From the UHGV virus genome UHGV-1347164: a DNA stretch of 14,343 nucleotides; one strand, 5' to 3'. The notes below the pieces were generated by a model that saw nothing but the letters and a program-made list of their open reading frames with translations, had not been told where the DNA came from and made no database searches. Within the stretch, counting starts at the first letter, position 1. The number at the start of each line of letters is the position of its first letter. Shown one piece after another: positions 1 to 12,844 of this stretch. The DNA comes from a virus. The position numbers and the translations under genes were made by a program.

Positions 1-2
1 CA

Positions 3-1271
3 CGCCAGATCGGCGCGACCTTTTACTTTGCCCGTGAAGCCCTGATTGACGCCCTGCTTACCGGACGTAACCAGATTTTCCTTTCTGCCAGTAAGGCACA
101 GGCTCACGTCTTTAAGCAGTACATCATCGACTTCGCCAAAGAAGTCGAGGTGGAGCTGAAAGGTGATCCGATAGTGCTTCCTGACGGGGCCACGCTTTAC
201 TTCCTCGGCACCAATGCCCGCACGGCCCAGAGTTACCACGGCAACCTGTATCTGGATGAATATTTCTGGATCCCGAAATTCCAGGAGCTGCGCAAAGTGG
301 CTTCCGGTATGGCTATTCACAAGAAATGGCGGCAGACCTATTTTTCCACGCCATCCAGCCTGACACACAGTGCTTATCCGTTCTGGTCCGGTGCGCTGTT
401 CAACCGTGGGCGCAACAAAGCCGATAAGGTGGACATCGACCTGTCCCACAGCAATCTGGCCCCCGGCCTGCTGTGCGCAGACGGGCAATACCGCCAGATA
501 GTCACCGTGGAAGATGCGGTGCGCGGCGGCTGTAACCTGTTCGACCTCGACCAGCTACGCATGGAATACAGCCCGGACGAATATCAGAACCTGCTGATGT
601 GCGAGTTCGTGGACGATCTCGCGTCCGTGTTCCCGCTCAGCGAACTGCAGGCGTGCATGGTGGACAGCTGGGAAGTCTGGACCGACTTTCATGCACTGGC
701 CCTGCGCCCGTTTGGCTGGCGCGAGGTGTGGATCGGTTATGACCCGGCAAAAGGTACGCAGAACGGCGACAGCGCCGGATGCGTGGTGGTGGCACCGCCA
801 GCCGTGTCAGGCGGTAAGTTTCGCATTCTTGAGCGTCACCAGTGGCGCGGGATGGACTTCCGCGCCCAGGCTGATGCAATCAAAAAACTGACCGAGCAGT
901 ACAACGTGACCTATATCGGCATCGACTCGACGGGTGTCGGTCACGGGGTTTACGAGAACGTGAAAGCGTTTTTTCCAGCCGTCCGGGAGTTTGTCTACAA
1001 CCCCAACGTTAAAAACGCCCTGGTACTCAAGGCCTACGACATTATCAGCCACCGCCGTCTGGAGTTTGACGCCGGACACACCGACATTGCGCAGTCATTC
1101 ATGGCAATCCGTCGCGCCACCACCGCCAGCGGCAACCGCCCGACCTATGAAGCCAGCCGCAGCGAAGAAGCCAGCCACGCCGATCTGGCCTGGGCAACGA
1201 TGCACGCATTGTTTAACGAACCGCTGCAGGGCGAATCCGCCAATACCAGCAATATTGTGGAGATTTTTTGA
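3..1271 (+). CDS. P: Terminase large (ATPase) subunit, P2 gpP-like; 5-prime partial, open reading frame continues to the window edge
   Basis: Frame of ORF 150..1271 is open with no stop back to position 3 (translation begins RQIGATFYFAREAL...). Large-terminase-like protein immediately upstream of a portal gene, with its TGA overlapping the portal ATG (TGATG at 1269-1273). The product is recognised from family resemblance, not from a search. Confidence 0.8.
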   Translation, partial: RQIGATFYFAREALIDALLTGRNQIFLSASKAQAHVFKQYIIDFAKEVEVELKGDPIVLPDGATLYFLGTNARTAQSYHGNLYLDEYFWIPKFQELRKVASGMAIHKKWRQTYFSTPSSLTHSAYPFWSGALFNRGRNKADKVDIDLSHSNLAPGLLCADGQYRQIVTVEDAVRGGCNLFDLDQLRMEYSPDEYQNLLMCEFVDDLASVFPLSELQACMVDSWEVWTDFHALALRPFGWREVWIGYDPAKGTQNGDSAGCVVVAPPAVSGGKFRILERHQWRGMDFRAQADAIKKLTEQYNVTYIGIDSTGVGHGVYENVKAFFPAVREFVYNPNVKNALVLKAYDIISHRRLEFDAGHTDIAQSFMAIRRATTASGNRPTYEASRSEEASHADLAWATMHALFNEPLQGESANTSNIVEIF

Positions 1272-2317
1272 TGGGAAAGAGTAAGAAGAACCGCGCTGCG
1301 GCGACGAAACAGATCCAGCTTAAAAGTCAAACTACAGCCGAAGCATTCAGCTTCGGCGATCCCGTTCCTGTTCTGGACCGCCGAGAACTGCTGGACTATG
1401 TGGAATGCGTACAGACAGATCGCTGGTATGAGCCGCCAGTAAGCTTTGACGGACTGGCGCGCACCTTCCGCGCCGCCGTGCATCACAGTTCACCAATTGC
1501 GGTGAAATGCAACATTCTGACCAGTACCTACATCCCTCACCCGCTGCTCAGCCAGCAGGCTTTTTCACGTTTTGTGCAGGACTATCTGGTATTTGGTAAC
1601 GCCTACCTGGAGAAACGCACGAACCGCTTCGGTGAAGTTATCGCCCTTGAGCCTGCTCTGGCAAAATACACCCGACGCGGGTTAGACCTGGATACCTACT
1701 GGTTTGTGCAATACGGTATGACAACCCAGCCGTATCAGTTCACGAAAGGCAGCATTTTTCATCTGATGGAACCGGACATCAACCAGGAGATCTACGGCCT
1801 GCCAGGTTATCTTTCTGCCATTCCATCAGCCCTGCTCAACGAGTCCGCCACGCTGTTCCGCCGGAAGTATTATATTAACGGCAGTCATGCAGGCTTCATC
1901 ATGTACATGACCGATGCCGCGCAGAACCAGGAGGATGTGAACAACCTCCGCAATGCAATGAAAAGTGCCAAAGGGCCAGGCAACTTCCGCAACCTGTTTA
2001 TGTACTCTCCTAACGGCAAAAAGGACGGGCTTCAGATTATCCCGTTGTCAGAAGTCGCGGCGAAGGATGAGTTTCTGAATATCAAGAACGTGAGCCGGGA
2101 CGACATGATGGCGGCACACCGTGTGCCGCCGCAAATGATGGGGATAATGCCTAATAATGTTGGGGGCTTTGGTGATGTGGAGAAGGCTAGTCGTGTTTTT
2201 GTCCGCAACGAACTGATGCCCCTGCAGAAACAGCTACAAGAACTTAACTATTGGCTAGGCGAAGAAGCAATACGCTTTGATGCCTACTCCCTAAATTTCA
2301 CAAACGATTCTTTTTGA
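1271..2317 (+). CDS. Q: Portal protein, P2 gpQ-like
   Basis: About 348 aa from the ATG at 1271 (the track starts 3 nt earlier at a TTG). Size and position after the terminase gene match the P2-family P-Q operon. GC-rich like the rest of the backbone. Confidence 0.8.
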   Translation: MGKSKKNRAAATKQIQLKSQTTAEAFSFGDPVPVLDRRELLDYVECVQTDRWYEPPVSFDGLARTFRAAVHHSSPIAVKCNILTSTYIPHPLLSQQAFSRFVQDYLVFGNAYLEKRTNRFGEVIALEPALAKYTRRGLDLDTYWFVQYGMTTQPYQFTKGSIFHLMEPDINQEIYGLPGYLSAIPSALLNESATLFRRKYYINGSHAGFIMYMTDAAQNQEDVNNLRNAMKSAKGPGNFRNLFMYSPNGKKDGLQIIPLSEVAAKDEFLNIKNVSRDDMMAAHRVPPQMMGIMPNNVGGFGDVEKASRVFVRNELMPLQKQLQELNYWLGEEAIRFDAYSLNFTNDSF

Positions 2318-2322
2318 TAAAT

Positions 2323-2344
2323 ATGCTGGGCCCCCCCCCGGCAT
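2323..2344. terminator. Candidate bidirectional stem-loop (ATGCTGGG / CCCGGCAT arms) containing a C9 homopolymer, lying exactly between the stops of the convergent Q and GmrSD-like genes
   Basis: Read directly: 8-bp arms with one G-T wobble around a C-rich loop. Q stop is at 2315-2317 and the minus-strand stop at 2345-2347. Flanks are only moderately T-rich, so intrinsic terminator function is uncertain. Confidence 0.3.
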
Positions 2345-4099
2345 TTACTCACGCCCCAATTTCCATACTGAATTATACGATAAAATACTTAGTTCAGCAG
2401 CTCTTGACCTCATATGATCGGGCGTCCATTCTCCTTGATATTTATTTTCAAATTCATCAATAAAAATTTTAACTAGCGCATATTGTGATTGTTTATAAAT
2501 TTCAAGCTTATCCACAACAGACTTATTTCCAGCTTTTTCATTTAATTCTTTTGAAAGTGGTAATAAATTTCCTATCATGCTATATACTTCAGAATCCCCC
2601 ACACTCTGAGGCTGAATATGCTCTAATGTTAATGAATCAGGCATATACTCCCCCGTTTTCATGTGATGTAACTCAAGTCTATTAAAAATGTACTGAATCA
2701 ACCTTTTATTTTTCAACTCTTGATTTGAAAATTTAAGCATAACAAACTTTTCAACAAACATATTAATGTCTGGTTTTCTCTTCACCAACATTTCAAGCAA
2801 AGACTTTATTACTTGTCTATTACTAGCTTTAGTAGAACCTTCATCCACTAAAGCCCTAGCAGCTTTAGCATACGCACTTTCAATACCTGATGGTCGCAAT
2901 GAACAAATAGCATTAAACATAAAATGAAAGCGTTCAATTGACAGCACTGCATTATTCATATCAACAAGTTTTAGCGTTCCTCTTGCTCTTGCCTTAAATA
3001 AAGATAACAAAAATGGTTTATTCTGAGATATGTTAAACAGCCTTAATGCCTGCAAACCTCGATAAACTGGTTTCATTTCCAGTTCAGGAAAATCCTGTTC
3101 TGTAGGCGATGATATTTTCACATATATCTCGGCATCTGAAAGTAGCTCATCAATGAACGCTGAAGCATCAATGTCGCCTTTTTTCCACTTATCCAGAAAA
3201 GCTTTATAAAGAGTGTCACTACTTACATAAGAATATTTTGACACCCACCAATGACGGATAAATGTCTCGATAGAACCGACACCATTACGACTAGCAATTA
3301 TTTGCCTAATTTTATTCCATTTAGTTTTTGCATCATCATCAGGATGTGTGCCATTCAGTTTCTTAAATAATTTGTTTTTTATAAGATCTACATAACTTAA
3401 GTTTAATCCCCTAGCATTCAGAGTTTCAAAGATTGTATAAGCTTCATCTTCATCATTAACTGTAATATAAATCACTTTCAGATACCGTAGAACTTGATCC
3501 CGCACAGCCTTCAACGCTTCCAAGTAGATAAATTTCTCTCTATCTACTCCTAATGTCTGGCAAAGATTATCTTCTGAAAGATACTCAGTTAAATCATTAT
3601 ATGAAGATTGCAAGTTTCTTTCTTCAAGGGACTCCGGCCCTTCATTTCTCTTATCAATATGCTGAATGTTGTTTTGAAAGTATGGCTTAGGAGTTTCATT
3701 AACTAATTTAAAAAAAGGTCTGCCATCGTCATCCATACCAGATATATAATTATTATATATTGATTGAGCTACAGCCAACTCATTTATCAACTTAAATTTA
3801 TCACATAATGCTGATAACAATATAGTAAGAGTCGTAAGACGTTGTTGACCATCTACAATCATCAGCTCAGAGCTAGTTTCCTGCCCGACCAAAACGAGAG
3901 CACCGATGAAATACTCATCATATTGATACTGCCCATCCTCCTGGTAATGAATATTGGAAACTATATCATGCCAAAGTTCACTTACTTGTTCCTTCCCCCA
4001 AGAATATTCTCTTTGGAATCTAGGGACTATATATTTTTTATTTACAGATAACACGTTTGTTAAGGTTCGAGCATTTGCTTGCAGTTCCACTGAGGCCAC
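2345..4099 (-). CDS. GmrSD-family type IV (modification-dependent) restriction endonuclease-like protein: N-terminal DUF262 (ParB-like NTPase/nuclease fold) plus C-terminal DUF1524 (His-Me finger nuclease)
   Basis: N-terminal motifs FQREYSW and DGQQRLTT are the DUF262 hallmarks. C-terminal LEHIQPQS ... GNLLPLSKELNEKAGNKS matches the DUF1524 His-Me finger pattern. 584 aa, visibly AT-rich against the GC-rich phage genes. No early ATG: the start is probably GTG at 4099 or the GTG at 4090, which is preceded by AGGTGG. Confidence 0.7.
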   Translation of the reverse strand: MASVELQANARTLTNVLSVNKKYIVPRFQREYSWGKEQVSELWHDIVSNIHYQEDGQYQYDEYFIGALVLVGQETSSELMIVDGQQRLTTLTILLSALCDKFKLINELAVAQSIYNNYISGMDDDGRPFFKLVNETPKPYFQNNIQHIDKRNEGPESLEERNLQSSYNDLTEYLSEDNLCQTLGVDREKFIYLEALKAVRDQVLRYLKVIYITVNDEDEAYTIFETLNARGLNLSYVDLIKNKLFKKLNGTHPDDDAKTKWNKIRQIIASRNGVGSIETFIRHWWVSKYSYVSSDTLYKAFLDKWKKGDIDASAFIDELLSDAEIYVKISSPTEQDFPELEMKPVYRGLQALRLFNISQNKPFLLSLFKARARGTLKLVDMNNAVLSIERFHFMFNAICSLRPSGIESAYAKAARALVDEGSTKASNRQVIKSLLEMLVKRKPDINMFVEKFVMLKFSNQELKNKRLIQYIFNRLELHHMKTGEYMPDSLTLEHIQPQSVGDSEVYSMIGNLLPLSKELNEKAGNKSVVDKLEIYKQSQYALVKIFIDEFENKYQGEWTPDHMRSRAAELSILSYNSVWKLGRE

Positions 4100-4166
4100 C
4101 TACTTTAGTTGTTTGTATTACACAGTTTTATAGCATTGGAGTTTGAATGACAACCCGTTGCGCGCG

Positions 4167-4185
4167 CTCGTATCCCCGCCACGCC
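4167..4185 (-). other. cos-like cohesive-end motif (minus strand GGCGTGGCGGGGATACGAG)
   Basis: Minus-strand 19-mer matches the 186 cohesive end as I recall it (GGCGTGGCGGGGAAAGCAT) at 15 of 19 positions, and P2 (GGCGAGGCGGGGAAAGCAC) at 13 of 19. Orientation is the one expected for a P2-type left end reading toward Q. Exact ends and identity are unverified. Confidence 0.45.
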
Positions 4186-4564
4186 TGCCCGCTTTATGCA
4201 GTGGTTTTCATGCACATGCATGACATGAGCAAAAGCCCGCCAGTTCTGGCGGATCTGAGCAAAGACGATCCTCAATCGATCATGCGATTTCATGCAGCAT
4301 AGTCATGCACTGTCAAGGAAGTGAAAATCCGTATCTGAATGGCCACTTGAAAAACGGATCATACGGGTTTACAAAGATGAATGTTCGCTGTGAACGGGAA
4401 GCGGAAGTTAACTTTCAGATAACATAATCCATATGCACGAGAACCTCTAAAATAGAATGGGACACCTAAGCGGGGTACTTACAACGATTCTTTCCATATT
4501 CACAGTTAACACTCTGTTTGGCGTATTTTTATTCAAATAGCAAACACCAATAAAAGGAGTTTCC

Positions 4565-4900
4565 ATGAACAATATTCCCCCTATACCACAGTTAGGAATT
4601 TATGTCTCAAAAATCGATCCCACCCTACGTATCACTGTAACCGATGTTGATATTGTTGATGGTGAGGATGATTCTCCTGATGATGAATTGTTTTATTTAG
4701 TCCACTGGATCGAGGGGGAAGATGAAAGTGATATGACAGCAATGGGATTTGAGCTAGACCCAGTAGAGTGGCAGGCTTTCGTTGAATCTGAGCAATTAGT
4801 GTTTGAGCGTGATCCGTACATGGATTCAATCCCCGAAAATTCAAACTTGGCAAAGATTCGGGATTTTCTCATGAAGACTAAACAGAATGATCATTCGTAA
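4565..4900 (+). CDS. Hypothetical, highly acidic small protein (111 aa); function unknown
   Basis: Clean ATG with an AGGAG Shine-Dalgarno 6 nt upstream (aaaAGGAGtttccATG). About 26 Asp/Glu against 7 Lys/Arg by manual count. AT-rich; lies in the accessory region between the cos-like site and the end of gene A. Confidence 0.6.
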   Translation: MNNIPPIPQLGIYVSKIDPTLRITVTDVDIVDGEDDSPDDELFYLVHWIEGEDESDMTAMGFELDPVEWQAFVESEQLVFERDPYMDSIPENSNLAKIRDFLMKTKQNDHS

Positions 4901-5092
4901 GTGTAAGCATCCATCAGGAAAATGGTTTTGTAAGTGAATCATCAACTTTTAGAGAGTCTCAGACACTCCCACTTCTGCTTCTGACACAAAGCGGACGATC
5001 ACTTATCAAAATAACCGCCCACCTTACGCCTTATTTCACTCATTGCCCAAACTAGCCCCCATCAGAATGAATCCTCCTGGGGGCAACATTTC

Positions 5093-5326
5093 TTAATGCA
5101 GCCAGCTGTCGTCCTCCCACACCTTCTGCATAATTTTCATCACTTGTTTTCTTTCTTCATCCAGTTGCAGTCCGGTTAGTTCCACACCGTTAGAGCTACC
5201 TTTGCGAATGCGAATTACCGTTTTGGGATACAGGGGGCGCAGATTGCGGTAAAGCTCGGATTCAAGTGCGTCCAGGGTAGACTGGCTAATCTTCTGCTCT
5301 TTATCGATCATTATTTCAATGCGCAT
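5093..5326 (-). CDS. dinI: DinI-family protein (SOS-inducible RecA modulator homologue), about 77 aa from the internal ATG
   Basis: From Met25 of track ORF 5093..5398 the protein reads MRIEIMIDKEQ...DALESEL...KIMQKVWEDDSW, which aligns by eye with E. coli DinI (MRIEVTIAK...DALAGEL...ETWESADDW). A GAGGTG Shine-Dalgarno sits 6 nt upstream of this ATG and overlaps the stop of the preceding ORF. Confidence 0.7.
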   Translation of the reverse strand: MRIEIMIDKEQKISQSTLDALESELYRNLRPLYPKTVIRIRKGSSNGVELTGLQLDEERKQVMKIMQKVWEDDSWLH

Positions 5327-5336
5327 AAAAGTCACC

Positions 5337-5525
5337 TCAGCTGATGACATCCATTGAGCGGTTGTATTCGTGGCTTCTGATTTTTGCCATGAGTTCATCA
5401 GTCAATTCAGAAACCCACTGCAGAGCCAGCCCCTTCTCTTCATCACTACACTCACTAGCCGCTACAAGCTTAAGAAAAAAATCAATGCGCTGGAGCTTCA
5501 AAGACTCCAAAAAATAGTCCTGCAT
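5337..5525 (-). CDS. Hypothetical small protein (62 aa), first gene of a putative LexA-regulated operon; candidate Tum-like antirepressor component
   Basis: ATG at 5525-5523 is preceded by GGAGG (GGAGGaaaaATG). The track's longer 96-aa version starts at a TTG and would run through the LexA box and promoter, so the shorter form is preferred. Its TGA stop is embedded in the Shine-Dalgarno of the DinI-like gene, suggesting translational coupling. Confidence 0.5.
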   Translation of the reverse strand: MQDYFLESLKLQRIDFFLKLVAASECSDEEKGLALQWVSELTDELMAKIRSHEYNRSMDVIS

Positions 5526-5566
5526 TTTTCCTCCTATGACACCACAAGCAATACTGTATGCATAAC

Positions 5567-5586
5567 CACTGTTTATATTTACAGTA
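5567..5586 (-). promoter_or_regulatory. LexA (SOS) box overlapping a candidate promoter for the small-ORF / DinI-like operon
   Basis: Plus strand reads cACTGTttatatttACAGta, i.e. CTGT-N8-ACAG with an AT-rich spacer, a near-consensus match to TACTGTATATATATACAGTA. It lies about 45 bp upstream of the ATG at 5525. A candidate -35 TTTACA and -10 TACTGT on the minus strand overlap the box. Confidence 0.55.
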
Positions 5587-5678
5587 TATAATAATCTTAC
5601 TGATGTAAAACGTTTTTTTACGTTCATCGGCCTGATATGCCTGGTATTATTAAGAGCACGAATTGTTAACCCGCGTAA

Positions 5679-8093
5679 TTAATACAGGTTCCGCCACTTA
5701 TCATCTTCCTTCAGACGCTGGTTCCGATAGAAGATACGCAGGCCTGCTCCTGACGGAATACTGCCGCCGCGAAGGAGCAAATCGACTTCTTTCTCGCTGC
5801 CATCAAATCCCCTGGACTTCAGTTCATAGACGAGCTGCTGTCGCTGATGGTCTGTAATTCGCTGTTTGTAGTCTTTACGCCGTTTCGGTTTCACCTGGCG
5901 TAACCTTGCAGCCAGTTCCCGGCGCTCTTTTTTGCTCATACTGTGCAGGTAATCGTGCAACTCCTTGTCATCCATGCGGGTAATGTCCGTTCTGGTGTCC
6001 CCATCAGCTGATTTATCTTTCTCCTGTTGGTTCAAATTTTCAGCAAGGGGACAGTTATTGCCACGAGTCCAAGGGGCGCAAGCGCCCTGGTCGGCTGCCG
6101 CCTCCTGAACGTCAACGGCTTTACGAACCATTTTCCACTTCACTGCATGAGTGCAGATCTTGCCCTCTGCAATGGGTGACCAGATGCCATAAATACGAAT
6201 GCCGTGATCGCCATAGGCGGTCGGCTCTTCGTTGATTTCATAAGCGGTTCTGATGAGGTGATATTTACGGGGAACCAGTACGCCGCCCTGCTTCATGATG
6301 TAGGTGGCAAAACAACCAGCATCAGCAGCAGCCAGGATTGCATCAAGGCGCGGGTTATCCAGTACCGGCGCACCTGCTTTTTTGTCACCCTGTTGCCTTG
6401 CCGCCTGACCAGCCAGCAATCGCAGTTCACGGTAAGCCTGACGCCCCGGAATGCCAAAGAAGCGGAATTGCTGAACACGATGCAGAGACGCCCAGGCATT
6501 TACGTATTCAGCGTTATCACGCAGGGATTTACCCGTTTCCTTGCTGATCTCGCCAGCCAGACCACGCCCGTCAATGTTCTTACTGATGTATTTCGCGATA
6601 TAGCTTGTTGGCGTACCTTTGCGCGGGTTTATCAGCTCAGACTTAAAGCGTGGTCCCGTGTTATTGCCCAACTCCTCGCGGTCTTCACGGATGGCAAACT
6701 TACGCAGTAATGCAGTGATGGCGCGGCGGTCTTTTTTACGCATGAAACACATGAGATGCCAGTGCACAGTACCGTCATGATGCGGCTCAGCTACCCGCAC
6801 GCCATACCAGCGCAACCCGGCTTTATGCATAGCCTTACGAAATGCAGCAAACATGCCGACCAGATAATCGCTACTTTGTCTTACCGTCGCGTTTGTCCAG
6901 GTCGGGTTTGGTCTGCCGTTATTGAGCGTGGAATGGAAACGCGACGGACAGGTGATAGTGTAGAAAACGGCACAGTCACTGCGCATTTCCGCGATAAGCT
7001 CCAGACCTTTAACACAGGCCATCATCTCATTGCGGCGATGCGCAGGGTTGCTGCTGCTGGCGTTTACCACATCCTCCATGTCCAGCGTGTCGCCGTCTTC
7101 GTTCACCAGTTCATGAGAACGGAAAAACTCCAGCGACTTACGGCGCTGCTCACGTTTATGCAACACGGCTTCATAGCTGACATAGGGAGATGCTTTTTTG
7201 CTGACAAGGCAGACAGCACGCAACTGCTCTTCCCGCCATTCGCAACGCATCTTCCATAATTTCCGATACCACCAGTCGGCACACAACATACGCGCCAGCG
7301 AACCCGGGATGAGTTCATAGGGCACTGGTTTGCGGCGGTTTCTTTTCCGACGAAGTTTCTCAAACGCAGGCGGGATAACATCCAGACGCAGGGTTTCCGC
7401 TGCCACCTTTTCCCATGTCTTGCGGATTTCTTCTGGCTTAACGTCATCGGTGGCATACAAATCACCACAAGCGGCCTCAAGACACATGCTCATATGCGCT
7501 GCTACCAGGGTGGACAGGCGTTTTACCTGATCCTGACTCATTTCAGGCAGGATCAGCAGGCCCTCAAGCCCTTGATGGCTTGCCATAAAACGGAAAGAAG
7601 CGGATAGCTGACTGTCGCGTACATACTCCAGTCGCTCCAGACATGGCTTAATCGTCTCACGCAAATAGCGGGAATAAGCCTTTGGCCTGCCCAGGCTGCT
7701 GAAGTATTCGATACGTTGCATCAGCGGCTTGCTGATGTGGGTAGGCTGGGCGCTGACGTCCGACAGAATGACCATGTCCGGGTCAAAACGCTGCTGCTCA
7801 TGCGCCAGCTTTGCCCGGCTAATGAGCTTATCCTGCTCCATTTCGCGCTGGACAGGATCACGGGATTCATTAAAGAAATAACGTTCCCAGACCTGATCAC
7901 TCAGTGCCTCGCGGCGCTGCTGTTCCTGCTCGTTATCGGCAGCGTACAGAGTGATCATGTTTGAAAGTGCAGACTCCGGCGCAACTTCCTCCGGTTCCAG
8001 ATAAGGGTTAATGGCCTTTTTCGGGCCGTTCCATGAAAATGCTGCGGCAGCCTCGTTAAAGCCGCTAGAGTTGCTCATATCGTCATTACTCAT
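5679..8093 (-). CDS. A: Replication initiation endonuclease, P2 gpA-like rolling-circle (HUH) initiator
   Basis: 804 aa, ATG start at 8093-8091. Contains an HUH-type motif (TVHWHLMCF) and a tyrosine motif (YIAKYISK). Size and position downstream of the early operon match P2/186 gene A. GC-rich. Confidence 0.85.
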
Positions 8094-8947
8094 ACACGCA
8101 CCTCGTACACAGCAGAACTATCCACGCCACGCGAAGGATCAAATCCCATCCAGCAGCGCGGCCCGGAAACAGCAATGATTTCTGTTGCAGATTTACTCTC
8201 GCCAGCTGACACGCCGATGCTGCGTTTTGCCTTGATGTAGTGGTGAGTGAAATTGCGATACAGCGAACGGATCAGGGATGTGTCACTGTTAGAAACAATG
8301 ACCGGATGTCCTTCTGATGACCGATGTTCAAGAACAGATGCCAGGTGATACTGGTCATCTTCAGTGAAGCCGTCAGTGTGATAGCCGGAAAACGTACCGT
8401 CATACGGCGGATCGCAATACACCACATCCCCCGCCTTCAACATCGCCAGCGTTTCATCAAAGCTGGCGCAGATAAACGTTGCTCGCTGGGCCTTTTCTGC
8501 AAATGCGCGAATTTCTTTTTCAGGGAAATACGGATTTTTATAATTACCGTAGGGAATGTTGAAATGCCCGCTCTTGTTATAGCGACATAAACCACGATAA
8601 CCGTGACGATTGAGATACAGGAAATATATCGCCTTCATGAAATCAGTAATTTCAGTTGAGTAATTAAACTCCTGCCTTATGTTGTAATAAGCCAGCTCAC
8701 TGTTTGCTTCCTCAAATAAAACTCTGGCACGAGATATAAACGCTTCGCAATCAGCGGCAATCTTTTTATAGAGGTTGATTAAATCAGGATTAATATCCGC
8801 AACCAGATAGCTGGGGTAATCCGTCTCCATCATCACAGCACAGGAACCCGCGAAAGGTTCAACCAGTCGCGGGCCAGCAGGAAGGTGTTTTTTCAGTTCG
8901 GACATAATGGCGGTTTTATTTCCCGCCCATTTCAGGATGGTGCTCAT
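8090..8947 (-). CDS. dam: DNA adenine methyltransferase (Dam-like, N6-adenine MTase)
   Basis: From the internal ATG the protein begins [11 protein letters not shown], the typical Dam N-terminus, and contains the DPPY catalytic motif. The track ORF starts upstream at a TTG. Its TGA overlaps the ATG of gene A, and its ATG overlaps the stop of the upstream TraR-like gene. Confidence 0.8.
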
Positions 8948-9171
8948 ACAGCACCTCCGTTGTAATGTTTGCCTTTCAGCTCTGCGATCTCCTGGCAGGT
9001 AATGCAAAGCTGCACTCCCGGAATGGCGCGTCGTCTTGCTGGCGGAATTGGCGCTTCACATTCAATGCAAAGCACGCGTGACACGCCCGGCGTTCTGGCA
9101 CGGGCAGCACGGATATGACGCTGGCGTTCTTCTTCAACGCGCTGCTGTACGAGATCCATTGCATCAGCCAT
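8944..9171 (-). CDS. TraR/DksA-family C4 zinc-finger protein
   Basis: 75 aa with CIEC-x17-CITC, a C-x2-C ... C-x2-C zinc finger typical of TraR/DksA-like proteins found in P2-family early operons. ATG start at 9171-9169; stop overlaps the Dam start. Confidence 0.7.
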   Translation of the reverse strand: MADAMDLVQQRVEEERQRHIRAARARTPGVSRVLCIECEAPIPPARRRAIPGVQLCITCQEIAELKGKHYNGGAV

Positions 9172-9404
9172 TAGTGGATCTCCTGCGCTTCGTTCTGGAT
9201 TGCTTCAGCAGTCACACGCAGCAGTTCTGCTGCTTCGACGTGGTTTAGCTGGCGGGATGTGATATGACACGCCAGGCTATCAAGGCGGGCAGCCATTGCC
9301 TCAGCCCTTGCCCGACGTTCTTCAAGACGGGCCTCTGTCAGTAAAAGATTAAGACCTGCATCATCCGGTCCGGTTTTAGTCGTGAGGGTTTCAATATTAC
9401 GCAT
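9171..9404 (-). CDS. Hypothetical early-operon protein (about 77 aa)
   Basis: ATG at 9404-9402 preceded by GGAG (GGAGaattgattATG); the track starts 2 codons earlier at a TTG. Its stop overlaps the TraR-like start (TAATG). No recognisable motif. Confidence 0.5.
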   Translation of the reverse strand: MRNIETLTTKTGPDDAGLNLLLTEARLEERRARAEAMAARLDSLACHITSRQLNHVEAAELLRVTAEAIQNEAQEIH

Positions 9405-9471
9405 AATCAATTCTCCTGAATTTAGATAAAGGGATGCCCGGCGGGTTTACGCCATTAATTTCATGAGTTGG

Positions 9472-9813
9472 TTAATTCGGCATGGTTAGCCGTCTGGGAA
9501 ATAAGCTCACCACTGCACGAAAATGATTCATTGCTTTAATCAACTCCCGCTTTTCGTCAGTGGTCAGCTCATTGATGCTGATGCTATGACGTTCAGCCGG
9601 AATTTTTGCCATAAAGAATATGGCTGCCAGTGCTCGTTTATTTTGTTCGTTATTGATATCCCGTGGATCACGCATATCTTTAATAAACCGCTCAAGCTCT
9701 GACTCAATATTCAGGCCAAAAACTTTTGCCCTTAATTCCGCTATGTGATTAAGTCCATTCAGGCGTTCACCGGGGCTTAATGGAACAGTCGCCGCAGCGC
9801 CTTCAATAGCCAT
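9472..9813 (-). CDS. Hypothetical early-operon protein (113 aa)
   Basis: ATG at 9813-9811 preceded by GGGGG (aaacGGGGGaacaaATG). Overlaps the end of the upstream ORF by 37 nt in another frame. No recognisable motif. Confidence 0.5.
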   Translation of the reverse strand: MAIEGAAATVPLSPGERLNGLNHIAELRAKVFGLNIESELERFIKDMRDPRDINNEQNKRALAAIFFMAKIPAERHSISINELTTDEKRELIKAMNHFRAVVSLFPRRLTMPN

Positions 9814-9977
9814 TTGTTCCCCCGTTTATTCGTTGATAGTTCCGCCAGCAATTCATCTTGTGAACGGCACGGATGCCAGCGTTTTCCATCCTCACCCATG
9901 ATCCAGCCGTGACCGTAGTGCATTGCCGGGCTTTGTTTTACCAGCAGCGATGCAAATGATGGTTCTTTCGTCAGCAT
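9777..9977 (-). CDS. Hypothetical small protein (about 66 aa) directly downstream of cII, in the position of 186 fil
   Basis: Internal ATG at 9977-9975 lies 8 nt after the cII stop with GGTG just upstream (TGAGGTGcttATG). The track's longer version starts at a GTG inside cII. Function not recognisable from sequence. Confidence 0.45.
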   Translation of the reverse strand: MLTKEPSFASLLVKQSPAMHYGHGWIMGEDGKRWHPCRSQDELLAELSTNKRGNKWLLKALRRLFH

Positions 9978-9984
9978 AAGCACC

Positions 9985-10494
9985 TCACAGCAAACCGAAT
10001 GAAGCACCGAGGCCAGTCACGGTATCAACTGCACTCGCCATCGCAGGATTAGCCTGTAAACGGGCCTGCAATGAAACAGCAGCCAGCGCCATCAGTCGTG
10101 TTACAGAGTTAATGCTGCTGATAGCATCACGACGACCTGCACTGGTTTTTACATCGCCAGATACCGCACCTGCAGCAACACGCCCGATCTCTGCGGTTGC
10201 ACTCATGACGTAATGCGGCAGTTTCTCTTTTGCCACCTCATTAATCGGTACGCATGGCAGGCAGTGAATCTGAGCCAGAAAACCATCTACCAGCGTTGAA
10301 TCTTCAGTCAGATCGGTAAGCAGCCAGATTTCTGGTGCGGTTAATAAATGAGGCTGAGCTGGGTTCAGCTTGTTCCGCAGAATCTGCACATTCATGCCTG
10401 CACGTTCTGCCAGTTGCACCAAGTTGTGGCGCAACGCGAATGTACGACAGGCTTCGTCAAAATGTGGATGTTTGGAAACTTGGTAATCAAACAT
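9985..10494 (-). CDS. cII: CII-type transcriptional activator of lysogeny establishment (phage 186 CII-like)
   Basis: From the ATG at 10494 the protein begins [15 protein letters not shown]... and is 169 aa. This closely resembles phage 186 CII as I recall it, which has the same length. The track ORF starts 3 codons upstream at a TTG. Confidence 0.7.
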
Positions 10495-10557
10495 GGTTTT
10501 CAACTCCGAACTTATCGCAAAATCGAACTCAGTGTCTTAATGCGAAATAGACATCTA

Positions 10558-10761
10558 TTAAGCAGACAAAGCATCAACAGTCAGAGCAGCCAGGTTAATC
10601 ATTACCTTTTCACGTTTTTTGTCTTTACGAAGACGATGACGAGGTAGTCGGCCATCAGCCAACATGTCGTTAATCGTATCAATAGAAAGGCCTGTCAGTT
10701 CGCTATAACGTTCGATCGTGACATGGGGTGTATTCAGAGTAATTGAAATGTTAGGTGTCAT
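10558..10761 (-). CDS. apl: Apl/Cox-like excisionase and switch regulator (Xis/AlpA-type HTH)
   Basis: First gene of the leftward early operon, immediately upstream of cII. Sequence YSELTGLSIDTINDMLADGRLP resembles an AlpA/Xis-type helix-turn-helix. Start taken as the ATG at 10761 (MTPNISITL), which has AAGGAA upstream; the track's longer form begins at a TTG, so the true start is uncertain. Confidence 0.55.
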   Translation of the reverse strand: MTPNISITLNTPHVTIERYSELTGLSIDTINDMLADGRLPRHRLRKDKKREKVMINLAALTVDALSA

Positions 10762-10850
10762 AAGGCAACATTCCTTATCAGTATGGCTTGTGGCGAGCCG
10801 TAGTTTGTCGTGATTAGTTGTGAAGGCTCCAAAAGAACACTTCTGGTTCA

Positions 10851-10879
10851 ACTTTAAGATCGCTTTTGGAATCTGTCAA
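10851..10879 (-). promoter_or_regulatory. Candidate early lytic promoter (pR-like) in the apl-cI switch region
   Basis: Minus strand has a consensus -35 TTGACA (10879..10874), a 17-nt spacer and -10 TAAAGT (10856..10851), oriented toward apl-cII. The placement is by eye only; operators and the opposing pL were not resolved. Confidence 0.3.
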
Positions 10880-10905
10880 CGGTTTTAGATTTCTTTGGAG
10901 GACTT

Positions 10906-11481
10906 ATGGATTTCAGCAGCGGTGGTAAGAAAGTCATTGAACGTCTAGTTGAGGCGTATGGGTTCTCTACTAGACAGGCTCTTTGCGATCACTTGGGAGT
11001 ATCCAAGAGCACTATGGCTACACGTTACATGCGAGACATCTTCCCTGCAGATTGGGTTTTGCAATGTGCTATCGAAACTGGTTATTCACTAGAATGGTTG
11101 TCATTCGGTATAGGTGATAAAAATATTTCAAATACAAATGCGCAAATTTTAGTACCAAAGAAAAAATTAATTTCTGGAACACTAATTGAAGATGGGGCAT
11201 ATGTTTTTGATAAAGCATTCTTACCTGAAAAAATATGTAACCCATTCATCATTGAAGATCTGGATAACGAATATATATGTAGTTTTGAATATGATGATAT
11301 AAGCGATGGATTGTGGCTAATAGGTATCGACGAAAAAATTTCGGTCCGAACCCTGACCCGCTTACCTAATAACAGATTATATGTTGAAGGAGGAAATCGT
11401 GGTTTTGAGTGTTCTAGAGACGAAATACAGATTGTTGGAATTGTGTGGTGTTGCATACTAAGAAGAGCAGAAAAATTTTAA
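10906..11481 (+). CDS. cI: Immunity repressor CI (186 CI-like, N-terminal HTH; no obvious S24 Ser-Lys autocleavage motif)
   Basis: 191 aa, ATG at 10906 with GGAG 5 nt upstream. Divergent from apl-cII across a 144-bp switch region. N-terminal HTH-like segment (TRQALCDHLGVSKSTMATRYM); C-terminal part ends in a LexA/CI-like beta-rich tail (NRLYVEGGNRGFECSRDEIQIVGIV) without a GDSM-type serine motif. The C-terminal half is AT-rich. Confidence 0.65.
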   Translation: MDFSSGGKKVIERLVEAYGFSTRQALCDHLGVSKSTMATRYMRDIFPADWVLQCAIETGYSLEWLSFGIGDKNISNTNAQILVPKKKLISGTLIEDGAYVFDKAFLPEKICNPFIIEDLDNEYICSFEYDDISDGLWLIGIDEKISVRTLTRLPNNRLYVEGGNRGFECSRDEIQIVGIVWCCILRRAEKF

Positions 11482-11512: not shown

Positions 11513-12844
11513 ATGCCTATTGAATATACGTTTGATTATCGTGACGAGTTCCTTCGTAAGCCTATTGCTGAAAAATTAATATCGCTACTTGACTCTGATA
11601 TTAACTTATCTCCACTGGTTATAGATGGCGGATGGGGCACGGGGAAAACAGAGTTTTGCAAAAAAGTTGCAAATCTAATTGAAAGCAATAATCAAAAACA
11701 TAAAGTAGTTTACATTGATGCTTTCGCTGAAGATCATAATGATGCCCCAATTTTGACGTTAATGGCTGGTGTTGCTGCACTTCTTCCCGAAAATGAACGA
11801 AAGGAGTTAATAAATAAAACACTTCCAGCAATACGTTTTGGTTTGAAAACCATTTTCAAAGCAGGCACTGGATGGGTGTTAAAACAAAATGCAGATGACA
11901 TTGTTGATGGCTTCGAAGATGCTATCAAAGAAGCAACTTCGAGTGCAATTGACAGTACAATTGAAACATTATTAGACGATCATATAGAGGCGCAGAAAAA
12001 CATCGAGACACTGAGAAGTACAATATCGCATCTTACAGAGGAATATAAAATAACGATTTTTATAGACGAACTGGACAGATGTAAACCTACATTCGCTCTT
12101 TCAATCATAGAAAATATCAAACACATTTTTGAAATAAAAAATTTAAATTTTGTATTGGTTGCAAAGACTCAACAACTCAAGGCATCAATAAGGCATCTGT
12201 ATGGTTTATCCATAAATGCAGATCAGTATTTAGACAAATTCATTAAGTTTACATTTGTATTGCCAGATACATATAAACCAGATAACTATACACCTGCATA
12301 CGCATCTGTTGCTTTATGGGGAATATTAAAAAATGATTCTCAAAAACTGCAAGAAGTAGACGAATCATGCGGGCATATCATAAAAACGATAATACAAAGG
12401 GCTAAGTTGTCTTTACGTGAAGTAGAAACATTATCACGCCACTTTGAAATATATCAGGTGCTATCTCAATCTGGAATTGGTCCAGGGAAAGTATTTGGTT
12501 ATTCATTATATCGAATGTTAGGGGTAATATTATACTCTCTAAATCGCCCTTTGGCATTAAGTTATCTAGATAATTCTGTGGATGCAGAAAGCATTATCAA
12601 AACCTTAGGCTTTGAATATTTAAGTTACGATGAAGATATTTATAGGATAGATAATACTGAATGTGCTATTTATGGGATCGTACTGGACTATATTGATACA
12701 ACATCTCCATTCTTTATAAAAGATGATGAAACCAGAAGAAAATGGACTGAACGTGCTACCTATGATTTCTTTCAAAACGGCTTAGACGCAGTGCCTCCCC
12801 GAACACTTGTTTCGTCCACCATTGAAGCTTTAATGTTGAACTAA
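11513..12844 (+). CDS. KAP-family P-loop NTPase (candidate prophage-encoded defence or lysogenic-conversion gene)
   Basis: 443 aa with Walker A GGWGTGKT and the KAP-type Walker B IFIDELDRC, separated by a moderately hydrophobic segment (APILTLMAGVAALLP...). GGAG 6 nt upstream of the ATG. Strongly AT-rich; starts 31 bp after the cI stop and ends 80 bp before int. Confidence 0.8.
   Translation: MPIEYTFDYRDEFLRKPIAEKLISLLDSDINLSPLVIDGGWGTGKTEFCKKVANLIESNNQKHKVVYIDAFAEDHNDAPILTLMAGVAALLPENERKELINKTLPAIRFGLKTIFKAGTGWVLKQNADDIVDGFEDAIKEATSSAIDSTIETLLDDHIEAQKNIETLRSTISHLTEEYKITIFIDELDRCKPTFALSIIENIKHIFEIKNLNFVLVAKTQQLKASIRHLYGLSINADQYLDKFIKFTFVLPDTYKPDNYTPAYASVALWGILKNDSQKLQEVDESCGHIIKTIIQRAKLSLREVETLSRHFEIYQVLSQSGIGPGKVFGYSLYRMLGVILYSLNRPLALSYLDNSVDAESIIKTLGFEYLSYDEDIYRIDNTECAIYGIVLDYIDTTSPFFIKDDETRRKWTERATYDFFQNGLDAVPPRTLVSSTIEALMLN

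Follow-up and report, generated by a model that had tools for sequence, protein, structure and literature searches.

A likely cos site parts the gpA–gpQ hotspot of a P2-family prophage into two cargo slots

Introduction

Does a prophage restriction gene sit at the very end of the packaged genome? We asked this of a 14,343-nucleotide stretch of viral DNA (UHGV-1347164; the whole stretch is called the window below), in which a GmrSD-like gene lies next to a G-rich 19-mer. The original prediction, made from the letters alone, was that this 19-mer is the cohesive-end site (cos) of a P2-like phage, that the GmrSD-like gene starts just inside the left end of the virion DNA, and that accessory genes flank cos on both sides.

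A variable locus near cos, between gpA and gpQ, is already known in P2-like phages (Rousset et al. 2022, PMC9122126; Odegrip et al. 2006). Rousset et al. reported 1,650 arrangements in 18,150 E. coli loci (PMC9122126), and a 2026 survey confirmed gpA–gpQ as the main P2 hotspot (PMC13586616). The terms GmrSD and DUF262 are absent from the main text of Rousset et al. (PMC9122126). The position between the left cohesive end (cosL) and Q has also been described as a hotspot for the uptake of foreign genes.

Our analysis identifies the 19-mer, with high probability, as the cos of a P2/Fels-2-type prophage. The prediction is a correct reading of an architecture that was already known: cos is where a specialist in P2-like phages would expect it, cargo alongside it would be no surprise, and nothing is overturned. 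What is new is the exact boundaries of a 151-bp cos block, the split of the hotspot into two slots, an orientation rule for the left slot, and the recognition of an ORF and PHROG family over cos as an artefact.

Results and Discussion

A P2-family prophage segment

The window covers part of a P2-family prophage, with the P2 map reversed: terminase P, portal Q, the GmrSD gene, cos, a 111-amino-acid ORF (ORF111), DinI, and gpA (Table 1). The large subunit of terminase lies inside the window and the small subunit (gpM) lies outside it. The C-terminal 423 codons of the large subunit are open, from base 3, and are collinear with the 588-amino-acid protein of prophage MB51. Further genes in the window encode a Dam methylase, a CI-type repressor, a KAP-NTPase-like protein, and an integrase. 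Among database records, the nearest to the window are Peduoviridae from Klebsiella and Escherichia (Elveevirus and Felsduovirus) and many E. coli prophages. Their backbones are 94–98% identical to the window, and the alignments have gaps exactly in the portal-to-A interval.

The methylase gene (8090–9007, minus strand) encodes a D12-class N6-adenine (Dam-like) methyltransferase; it and the start of gpA share 4 bp. Such a gene is present in roughly half of the relatives that we surveyed; P2 and 186 are without it.

Table 1. Features of the window around the predicted cos site. Positions are those of the window. A1 and A2 are the alignments described in the text.
Feature	Position	Strand	Evidence or remark
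Terminase large subunit (P2 gpP homologue)	1–1271	+	Terminase_6N/6C; cut by window edge
Portal gene (P2 gpQ homologue), a backbone gene that bounds the left slot	1268–2317	+	Pfam Phage_portal; annotation in relatives
Left-slot cargo: intact GmrSD-type (DUF262 + DUF1524) putative type IV restriction gene	2345–4099	-	
Putative GmrSD promoter	4127–4153	-	Manual reading and one comparison (L150)
Left-end flank, CGCGCGC	4160–4166	-	Conservation profile, A2; cargo starts right beyond
cosN, predicted 19-nt 5' cohesive end	4167–4185	-	Matches to P2/186/P4; identity to SEN8 and Cartapus sites
Predicted nicks	4186/4185 (minus strand); 4166/4167 (plus strand)		Extrapolated from P2/186
Right-end flank, presumed terminase-recognition region (125 bp)	4186–4310	-	Conservation; aligns with right flanks of P2/186/P4
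Five YGCATGA heptamers	4208–4214, 4217–4223 (inverted), 4280–4286, 4290–4296, 4303–4309		In the right flank of cos
GC hairpin (CCGCCAG/CTGGCGG), then CTTTTG T-run	4236–4253	-	51–68 bp from the nick
GATC sites	4267–4270, 4278–4281		In the right flank of cos; conserved
Right-slot variable cassette, with ORF 4565–4900 (111 aa, phrog_17127)	4312–5082	+	
Backbone boundary of the right slot	5093–8093	-	Pfam DinI, Phage_GPA 1.7e-126; PHROGs; homology restarts at 5083
DinI/Tum-like gene	5093–5398	-	Pfam DinI
Small ORF	5337–5627	-	
Replication gene A	5679–8093	-	Phage_GPA 1.7e-126; 804 aa

The 19-mer and its flanks align with the ends of P2, 186, and P4

The minus strand of the 19-mer reads GGCGTGGCGGGGATACGAG (plus strand, CTCGTATCCCCGCCACGCC), letter for letter as predicted. 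There is one copy of its 13-base core, GGCGWGGCGGGGA, in the 14.3-kb window, also if one mismatch is tolerated, and 200 dinucleotide-preserving shuffles gave no matches to it. The reference ends are GGCGAGGCGGGGAAAGCAC for P2 cosL, which is also the end sequence of P4, and GGCGTGGCGGGGAAAGCAT for 186 cos. The predicted resemblance to the 186 and P2 ends is borne out: the window's 19-mer matches the 186 end at 15 of 19 positions, with the first 13 bases identical, and the P2/P4 end at 14 of 19. The 19-mer is of the G-rich 19-nt cosN type of the P2 family, GGCGWGGCGGGGAAAGCAY. What it has in common with P2, 186, and P4 is a G-rich 19-mer beginning GGCGWGGCGGGGA, but bases 14–19 differ (ATACGAG in the window versus AAAGCAT or AAAGCAC). 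As only two of the final six bases agree with 186, the exact positions of the nicks are extrapolated.

We compared the window with P2, 186, and P4 after joining the ends of each of the three. Alignment A1 contains the window, Escherichia phage Cartapus, P4, P2, and 186; alignment A2 contains 58 sequences. The homology to the P2, 186, and P4 cos regions covers the 19-mer and both flanks. The right-end flank aligns with all three at GCATGAAAACC...AAAGCGGGCA, and ...TGCATGAAAACCACTGCATAAAGCGGGCA aligns with ...TGCATTAAAACCGACCCATAAAGTGGGCA of 186 and with the equivalents in P2 and P4. The shared right-end flank can be written GCATKAAAACC...AAGCGGGC, and clustered TGCATG repeats lie about 100–125 bp into it in the reference phages as in the window. 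GCAT.AAAACC, AAG.GGGC, and the TGCATG repeats are invariant in A1, and A2 agrees. On the left-end side, the shared flank is YGCGCGC: the 19-mer is followed by CGCGCGC in the window and P4, and by TGCGCGC in P2 and 186.

Conservation by column stays high between 4310 and 4160 and falls off abruptly outside these limits, so the module is 151 bp long (4160–4310): a right-end flank of 125 bp, the 19-mer, and CGCGCGC. That heptamer is the sole conserved sequence on the portal side of cosN. BLAST homology to the prophage of E. coli BL21 and to Klebsiella phage 4LV2017 restarts exactly at 4160, and matches to the cos block across E. coli begin at about 4160.

Could a G-rich 19-mer match 14 or 15 of the 19 positions of the classical ends by chance? 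The probability of this is negligible. The shuffles, the alignment of the flank (where the homology runs on for 125 bp on one side), and the 58-sequence alignment already refute it, and both the position and the orientation are identical in 57 loci of different species.

These 57 loci, from enterobacterial prophages, belong to a set of 80 species-representative loci that we gathered via the portal protein, and in which we located the block by profile search. All 57 strong-scoring blocks lie between the portal gene and gpA, in one orientation. The block of the window also sits between portal Q and replication gene A with its left end facing Q; gene order and strands bear out the prediction that the left end reads toward Q, and this is the same in the 57 loci. 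More broadly, the cos block was matched in 1,263 of 5,426 complete E. coli genomes, and an exact 30-mer scan of IMG/VR found at least 120 loci with the cos 30-mer. P4-like satellites with the window's cos variant would be independent evidence that it functions; we screened 80 of the IMG/VR loci for them, using P4 alpha, sid, delta, psu, and int as queries, and found none (76 loci are P2-like and 4 are unclassifiable fragments). None of the IMG/VR contigs from the 30-mer scan ended exactly at the nick. One metagenomic viral contig (L161, IMGVR_UViG_3300011853_000021) has two copies of the cos 30-mer in inverted orientation with 3.2 kb between them (3441–3470 and 6699–6728), perhaps through chimeric assembly at the cohesive ends.

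The 19-mer is identical in 32 of the 57 loci. The commonest difference is at its position 13 (window 4173), which is A in 34 loci, C in 15, G in 7, and T in 1; a few loci also vary at other positions. The presence of all four bases suggests that position 13 is not read by the terminase nuclease. If two such phages with different bases at this position recombined at cos, their overhangs would mismatch there.

The same 19-mer has been annotated as cos in two isolated phages. Bases 1–19 of Salmonella phage SEN8 are identical to it and are annotated as a "putative cos site" (PMC5427200); the SEN8 record begins at the 19-mer by its authors' choice. In Cartapus, it lies within a 59-bp "putative cos site, homologous to the cos of P2". 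The right flanks of SEN8 (a Felsduovirus) and Cartapus (an Elveevirus) are about 90% identical to the window's. Both sites were assigned by similarity and without end mapping, and we found no published end mapping for this variant of the 19-mer in the literature. Unlike these two phages, the window is a prophage segment, and its cargo between portal and cos is unlike theirs (a hypothetical gene and an HNH endonuclease in SEN8; a DUF4145 protein in Cartapus).

At the level of sequence, the homology to cos, the position, and the polarity are established. We are confident that 4160–4310 serves as the cos packaging site, and that the prophage is a member of the P2 family, of Fels-2/SEN8/Elveevirus type.

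The block is unlikely to be a gene, an RNA, or a fossil

We also considered that the block might be conserved as a small protein or a structured RNA instead of as a packaging site. A 62-amino-acid ORF (4105–4293, minus strand) crosses cos and appears in the annotations of phage 4LV2017, SEN8-like records, and RefSeq E. coli genomes; it matches phrog_28685 at 6e-27. However, stops or frameshifts interrupt its reading frame in 10 of 35 relatives (RefSeq flags a pseudogene with an internal stop), variability is alike at the three codon positions (0.107, 0.116, and 0.120), and conservation ends at 4160, in the middle of the ORF. For these reasons we reject the ORF as a gene and view it as conserved cos DNA. 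As for a structured RNA, the block does contain a conserved hairpin with a T-run, but there is no match in Rfam at E ≤ 1 in 3900–5200. Moreover, the block can be aligned base by base to the cos annotated in P2 and in 186, as well as to the P4 record's ends. Both readings, protein and RNA, are very improbable. A spurious "hypothetical protein", along with the PHROG family phrog_28685, is often annotated over cos.

A different concern is that cos might be a fossil. In a defective prophage nothing would be packaged, and for this copy it would be physically meaningless to speak of the "end of the virion genome". E. coli B/BL21 has the cos block and the right cassette (99–100% identity) together with a truncated gpA and CII, and just 14 kb or so of the element is visible, with most of the prophage lying beyond the window. 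But in the window, the genes for the portal, gpA, the Dam methylase, CI, and the integrase are all full length, the terminase frame is open up to the window edge, and the block shows no decay relative to the consensus of A2. A fossil seems unlikely.

Repeats, GATC sites, and a hairpin in the right flank

Of the window's 11 YGCATGA matches, 5 lie within 102 bp in the right flank of cos. If lambda cosB and the core of P2/P4 cos are a guide, this cluster is likely to be where the small terminase subunit binds. (The P2/P4 core is given as 55 bp, after Ziermann & Calendar 1990, as cited in PMC5694545.)

The flank also has two GATC sites, 11 bp apart, which are kept in 53–54 of the 58 sequences; the spacer between them varies. 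The pair is specific to the window's clade and is lacking in P2, 186, and P4. We considered that the phage's own Dam might act on cos through these sites, as at the pac site of P1, but we dropped this idea: there is no correlation with phage dam, and in 22 loci both GATC sites are kept and a phage dam was not detected. Host Dam or SeqA may have a role in packaging at these sites.

On the strand that reads from the DinI/gpA side toward cos, a hairpin is followed by a T-run. The stem is 89.9% paired over the 58 sequences, with modest covariation (6 doubly changed cells). A few loci have wholly different yet complementary stems at this position. The hairpin may be a terminator that insulates the left slot, or it may be part of the terminase site. 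We do not accept it as a proven terminator; with six doubly changed cells, the evidence is suggestive.

A GmrSD-type gene starts less than 100 nt from the predicted virion end

The left-slot gene points away from cos and toward the portal gene; the two genes converge. Its product matches the Pfam families GmrSD_N (PF03235, 1e-38) and GmrSD_C (PF07510, 1.2e-11), and among the PADLOC models it has full-length matches to HEC-06 (3.8e-90) and a match to mREase_IV. It combines a DUF262 domain that contains DGQQR (as VDGQQRL) with a DUF1524 His-Me finger domain; the C-terminal motif EH...N...N appears as LEHIQP...GNLLPL...NEKAGNK, which is His-Me-finger-like. Both Pfam domains and the motifs are shared with the GmrSD type IV enzymes (see also BrxU and the N-domain of SspE). 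The window's version is a single polypeptide and is phage-borne.

The start codon could be GTG 4099, which gives the longest ORF, or GTG 4090, which gives a protein of 581 amino acids. Comparisons with homologues make GTG 4090 the likely start: it matches the ATG of an 84%-identical homologue (in locus L150) and the start in the RefSeq annotation of the 99%-identical gene (581 amino acids; WP_000422658.1). The distance to the inner edge of the 19-mer is 67 bp from GTG 4099 or 76 bp from GTG 4090, which agrees with the predicted 70–80 bp from the virion DNA end; to the 5' tip of the 19-mer it is 86 or 95 nt. If the prophage is packaged, then this would be the terminal gene of the packaged DNA.

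A promoter for the GmrSD gene can be proposed between the gene and cos. It would have a -35 hexamer of TTGTCA (4153–4148), a 15-nt spacer, and an extended -10 of TGC + TATAAA (4135–4127), and the -35 hexamer would begin 14 bp inside the duplex left end. The region upstream of the L150 homologue keeps the -35, the spacing, and TGC-(T/G)ATAAA, while the sequence of the spacer differs. A scan for consensus promoters between cos and the GmrSD gene called none; it would have missed this one because the spacer is under 16 nt. We infer that TTGTCA/TGC-TATAAA is the gene's own promoter.

Two other loci have GmrSD-family genes in the portal-side slot: L184 (from IMG/VR, at about 9011–10910; 37% identical to the window's protein) and L150 (at 1–613; 84% identical). 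These genes start 132 and 66 nt from cos, respectively. So this family of enzymes was acquired in this slot more than once.

Cargo beside cos is the norm in this clade

The distance from the portal stop (2317) to the start of the 19-mer (4167) is 1,849 bp in the window. The original prediction put the interval from the left end to Q in P2 at only a few hundred base pairs. It is 167 bp; in 186 it is 176 bp, and both are geneless. But P2 and 186 are in the minority. Across the 57 species-representative loci, the distance from the portal stop to cos ranges from 148 to 3,499 bp (median 1,684 bp); it is above 500 bp in 49 loci, and just 8 have minimal spacing like that of P2 or 186. On the other side, the gap between cos and gpA ranges from 431 to 4,378 bp and is above 900 bp in 29 of 52 loci. 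Both cut-offs are exceeded in 22 of 52. In an independent set from IMG/VR, the portal–cos distance is above 500 bp in 74 of 85 loci, and the counterpart for cos–gpA is 50 of 78.

The interval is bounded by gpQ and gpA, and its content differs among close relatives: at 94–99% backbone identity, they have genes for retrons, KAP NTPases, Abi, SIR2, PIN, or DUF262 proteins between gpA and gpQ. In the window, the GmrSD gene matches models of defence genes. The right-side cargo is the single ORF111, which matches a PHROG family without a functional assignment (phrog_17127).

Cargo on both sides of cos is the norm for this clade and has been published, and is therefore not remarkable. The published studies of the gpA–gpQ hotspot concern the same interval, with the same extreme variability and with the retron, KAP, Abi, SIR2, and DUF262 content that we see in the window's relatives. 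They treat it as a single locus "adjacent to cos", whereas in our analysis cos lies inside the interval and separates two slots.

Similar arrangements on the left side are known from more distant phages. In Pseudomonas phage phiCTX, cosL is at 1–21, a promoter is at 281–308, ctx is at 362–1222 (plus strand), and Q is at 1417–2469 (minus strand). The ctx gene has its own promoter and lies a few hundred bp from cosL; like the GmrSD gene, it reads away from cos and is convergent with Q. Ralstonia phage phiRSY1 has ORF1–4 between cosL and Q, which corresponds to the left cargo of the window. These phages are from other host clades and have other cos sequences, and their cargo is a toxin or is related to type VI secretion rather than a restriction enzyme. 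The gop and beta genes of P4 have the same layout relative to cos as the left-slot cargo.

The cos block separates two independently exchanged cassettes

The left cassette (about 2318–4159) and the right cassette (4312–5082) are each replaced or absent in prophages that are 94–99% identical to the window. This variability, on either side of cos among near-identical prophages, supports the prediction that accessory genes flank cos on both sides.

We mapped the breakpoints by pairwise BLAST of each prophage against the window. The BL21 prophage matches window positions 1–2267 and then resumes exactly at 4160 and continues through 6800 (99% identity). Its right slot is the same as the window's, and its left slot holds a retron St85/Ec86 reverse transcriptase and effector, with the effector starting 75 bp from cos. 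MB51 matches the window at 1–4311 and then from 5083, so that it has the same GmrSD gene (99%) in the left slot and an empty right slot. WL7562 matches at 1–4310 and then from 5083; it has the same GmrSD gene on the left and two different genes on the right. In Klebsiella phage 4LV2017, the backbone matches at 1–2229 and from 5095, and within the Q–A interval just 4160–4308 matches; the left slot has a retron and the right slot is unlike the window's. Thus, the left cassette is found with three states of the right slot, and the right cassette with two states of the left slot, and the cos block is the junction that all of the combinations share.

In other words, cos parts the A–Q hotspot into two slots, INDEPENDENTLY filled, with breakpoints at the edges of the 151-bp block, and among prophages that are nearly identical elsewhere, each slot has exchanged its contents independently of the other. 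In the window, a rare GmrSD cassette on the left is joined with a common ORF111 cassette of the E. coli B type on the right. The latter is 100% identical to the prophages of E. coli B/BL21 and E. coli C and was matched in 311 of the 5,426 complete E. coli genomes (as compared to 1,263 for the cos block).

The portal-side retron in BL21 (L092, NZ_CP010816, 3733–5874) is annotated as a "retron St85 family" reverse transcriptase with its effector. It is presumably the classical Ec86/Eco1 retron of E. coli B. The BL21 prophage is P2-like and defective, and its cos 19-mer is identical to the window's.

The left slot also shows a strong bias in orientation. Considering the loci whose left slot contains an ORF of at least 120 amino acids, the ORF closest to cos reads away from cos in 30 of 31, and it starts 25–227 nt from the 19-mer (with starts taken from the longest ORF).

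A model for packaging and cassette exchange

If the block is cos, then we would expect terminase (the gpP homologue and the small subunit encoded outside the window) to recognize the 125-bp right flank via the YGCATGA repeats. Staggered nicks that flank 4167–4185 would leave 5' overhangs of 19 nt, as in P2 and 186. The left end of the virion DNA would then be GGCGTGGCGGGGATACGAG/CGCGCGC, leading straight into the GmrSD gene and then to Q and P, and the right end would be the recognition flank, ORF111, DinI, and gpA. In the lysogen, GmrSD is probably expressed from its own promoter just within the left end, and, to judge by its family, it would restrict the DNA of incoming phages in a modification-dependent (type IV) manner. 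We also speculate, by analogy with lambda cosB, that packaging begins at the right end, so that the GmrSD end would be packaged last.

A broader version of this model is that the cos block is a fixed hinge between independent slots, with a rule for orientation in the left one and, in the window and one homologue, a putative promoter right next to the end; that defence genes are terminal on the virion chromosome, where they are the last to be packaged and the first to enter; and that the cassettes can be exchanged between helper phages and P4-like satellites. The data show the slot structure and the orientation bias. If defence genes are indeed terminal, this location, together with the asymmetric recognition flank, could make them the last to be packaged and the first to enter a new cell. 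The cargo of P4-like satellites is on the same side of cos as the left slot, and if the broader model is true, then cassettes next to cos could pass between helpers and P4-like satellites. As a whole, we consider this model to be tentative, and it is more doubtful than not.

Uses of the cos coordinates

Our analysis gives exact coordinates for cos in this family of prophages. The 151-bp fragment should suffice for the design of cosmids or transducing particles with helpers of the Fels-2 or Elveevirus type. The analysis also refines the gpA–gpQ hotspot to two slots on either side of cos. The recombination boundaries are sharp, and on the portal side there is a strong rule for orientation. The two-slot view should help in parsing these loci, as unrelated systems that current pipelines merge into one "arrangement" could be separated.

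The prophage also has a third cargo position. Between the CI-type repressor and the integrase, 11513–12844 (plus strand) encodes a protein of 443 amino acids that matches PADLOC's candidate defence model PDC-S20 (1.3e-173), with weaker matches to PifA/QatA-like P-loop proteins. At this position, the relatives have a KAP family NTPase or nothing.
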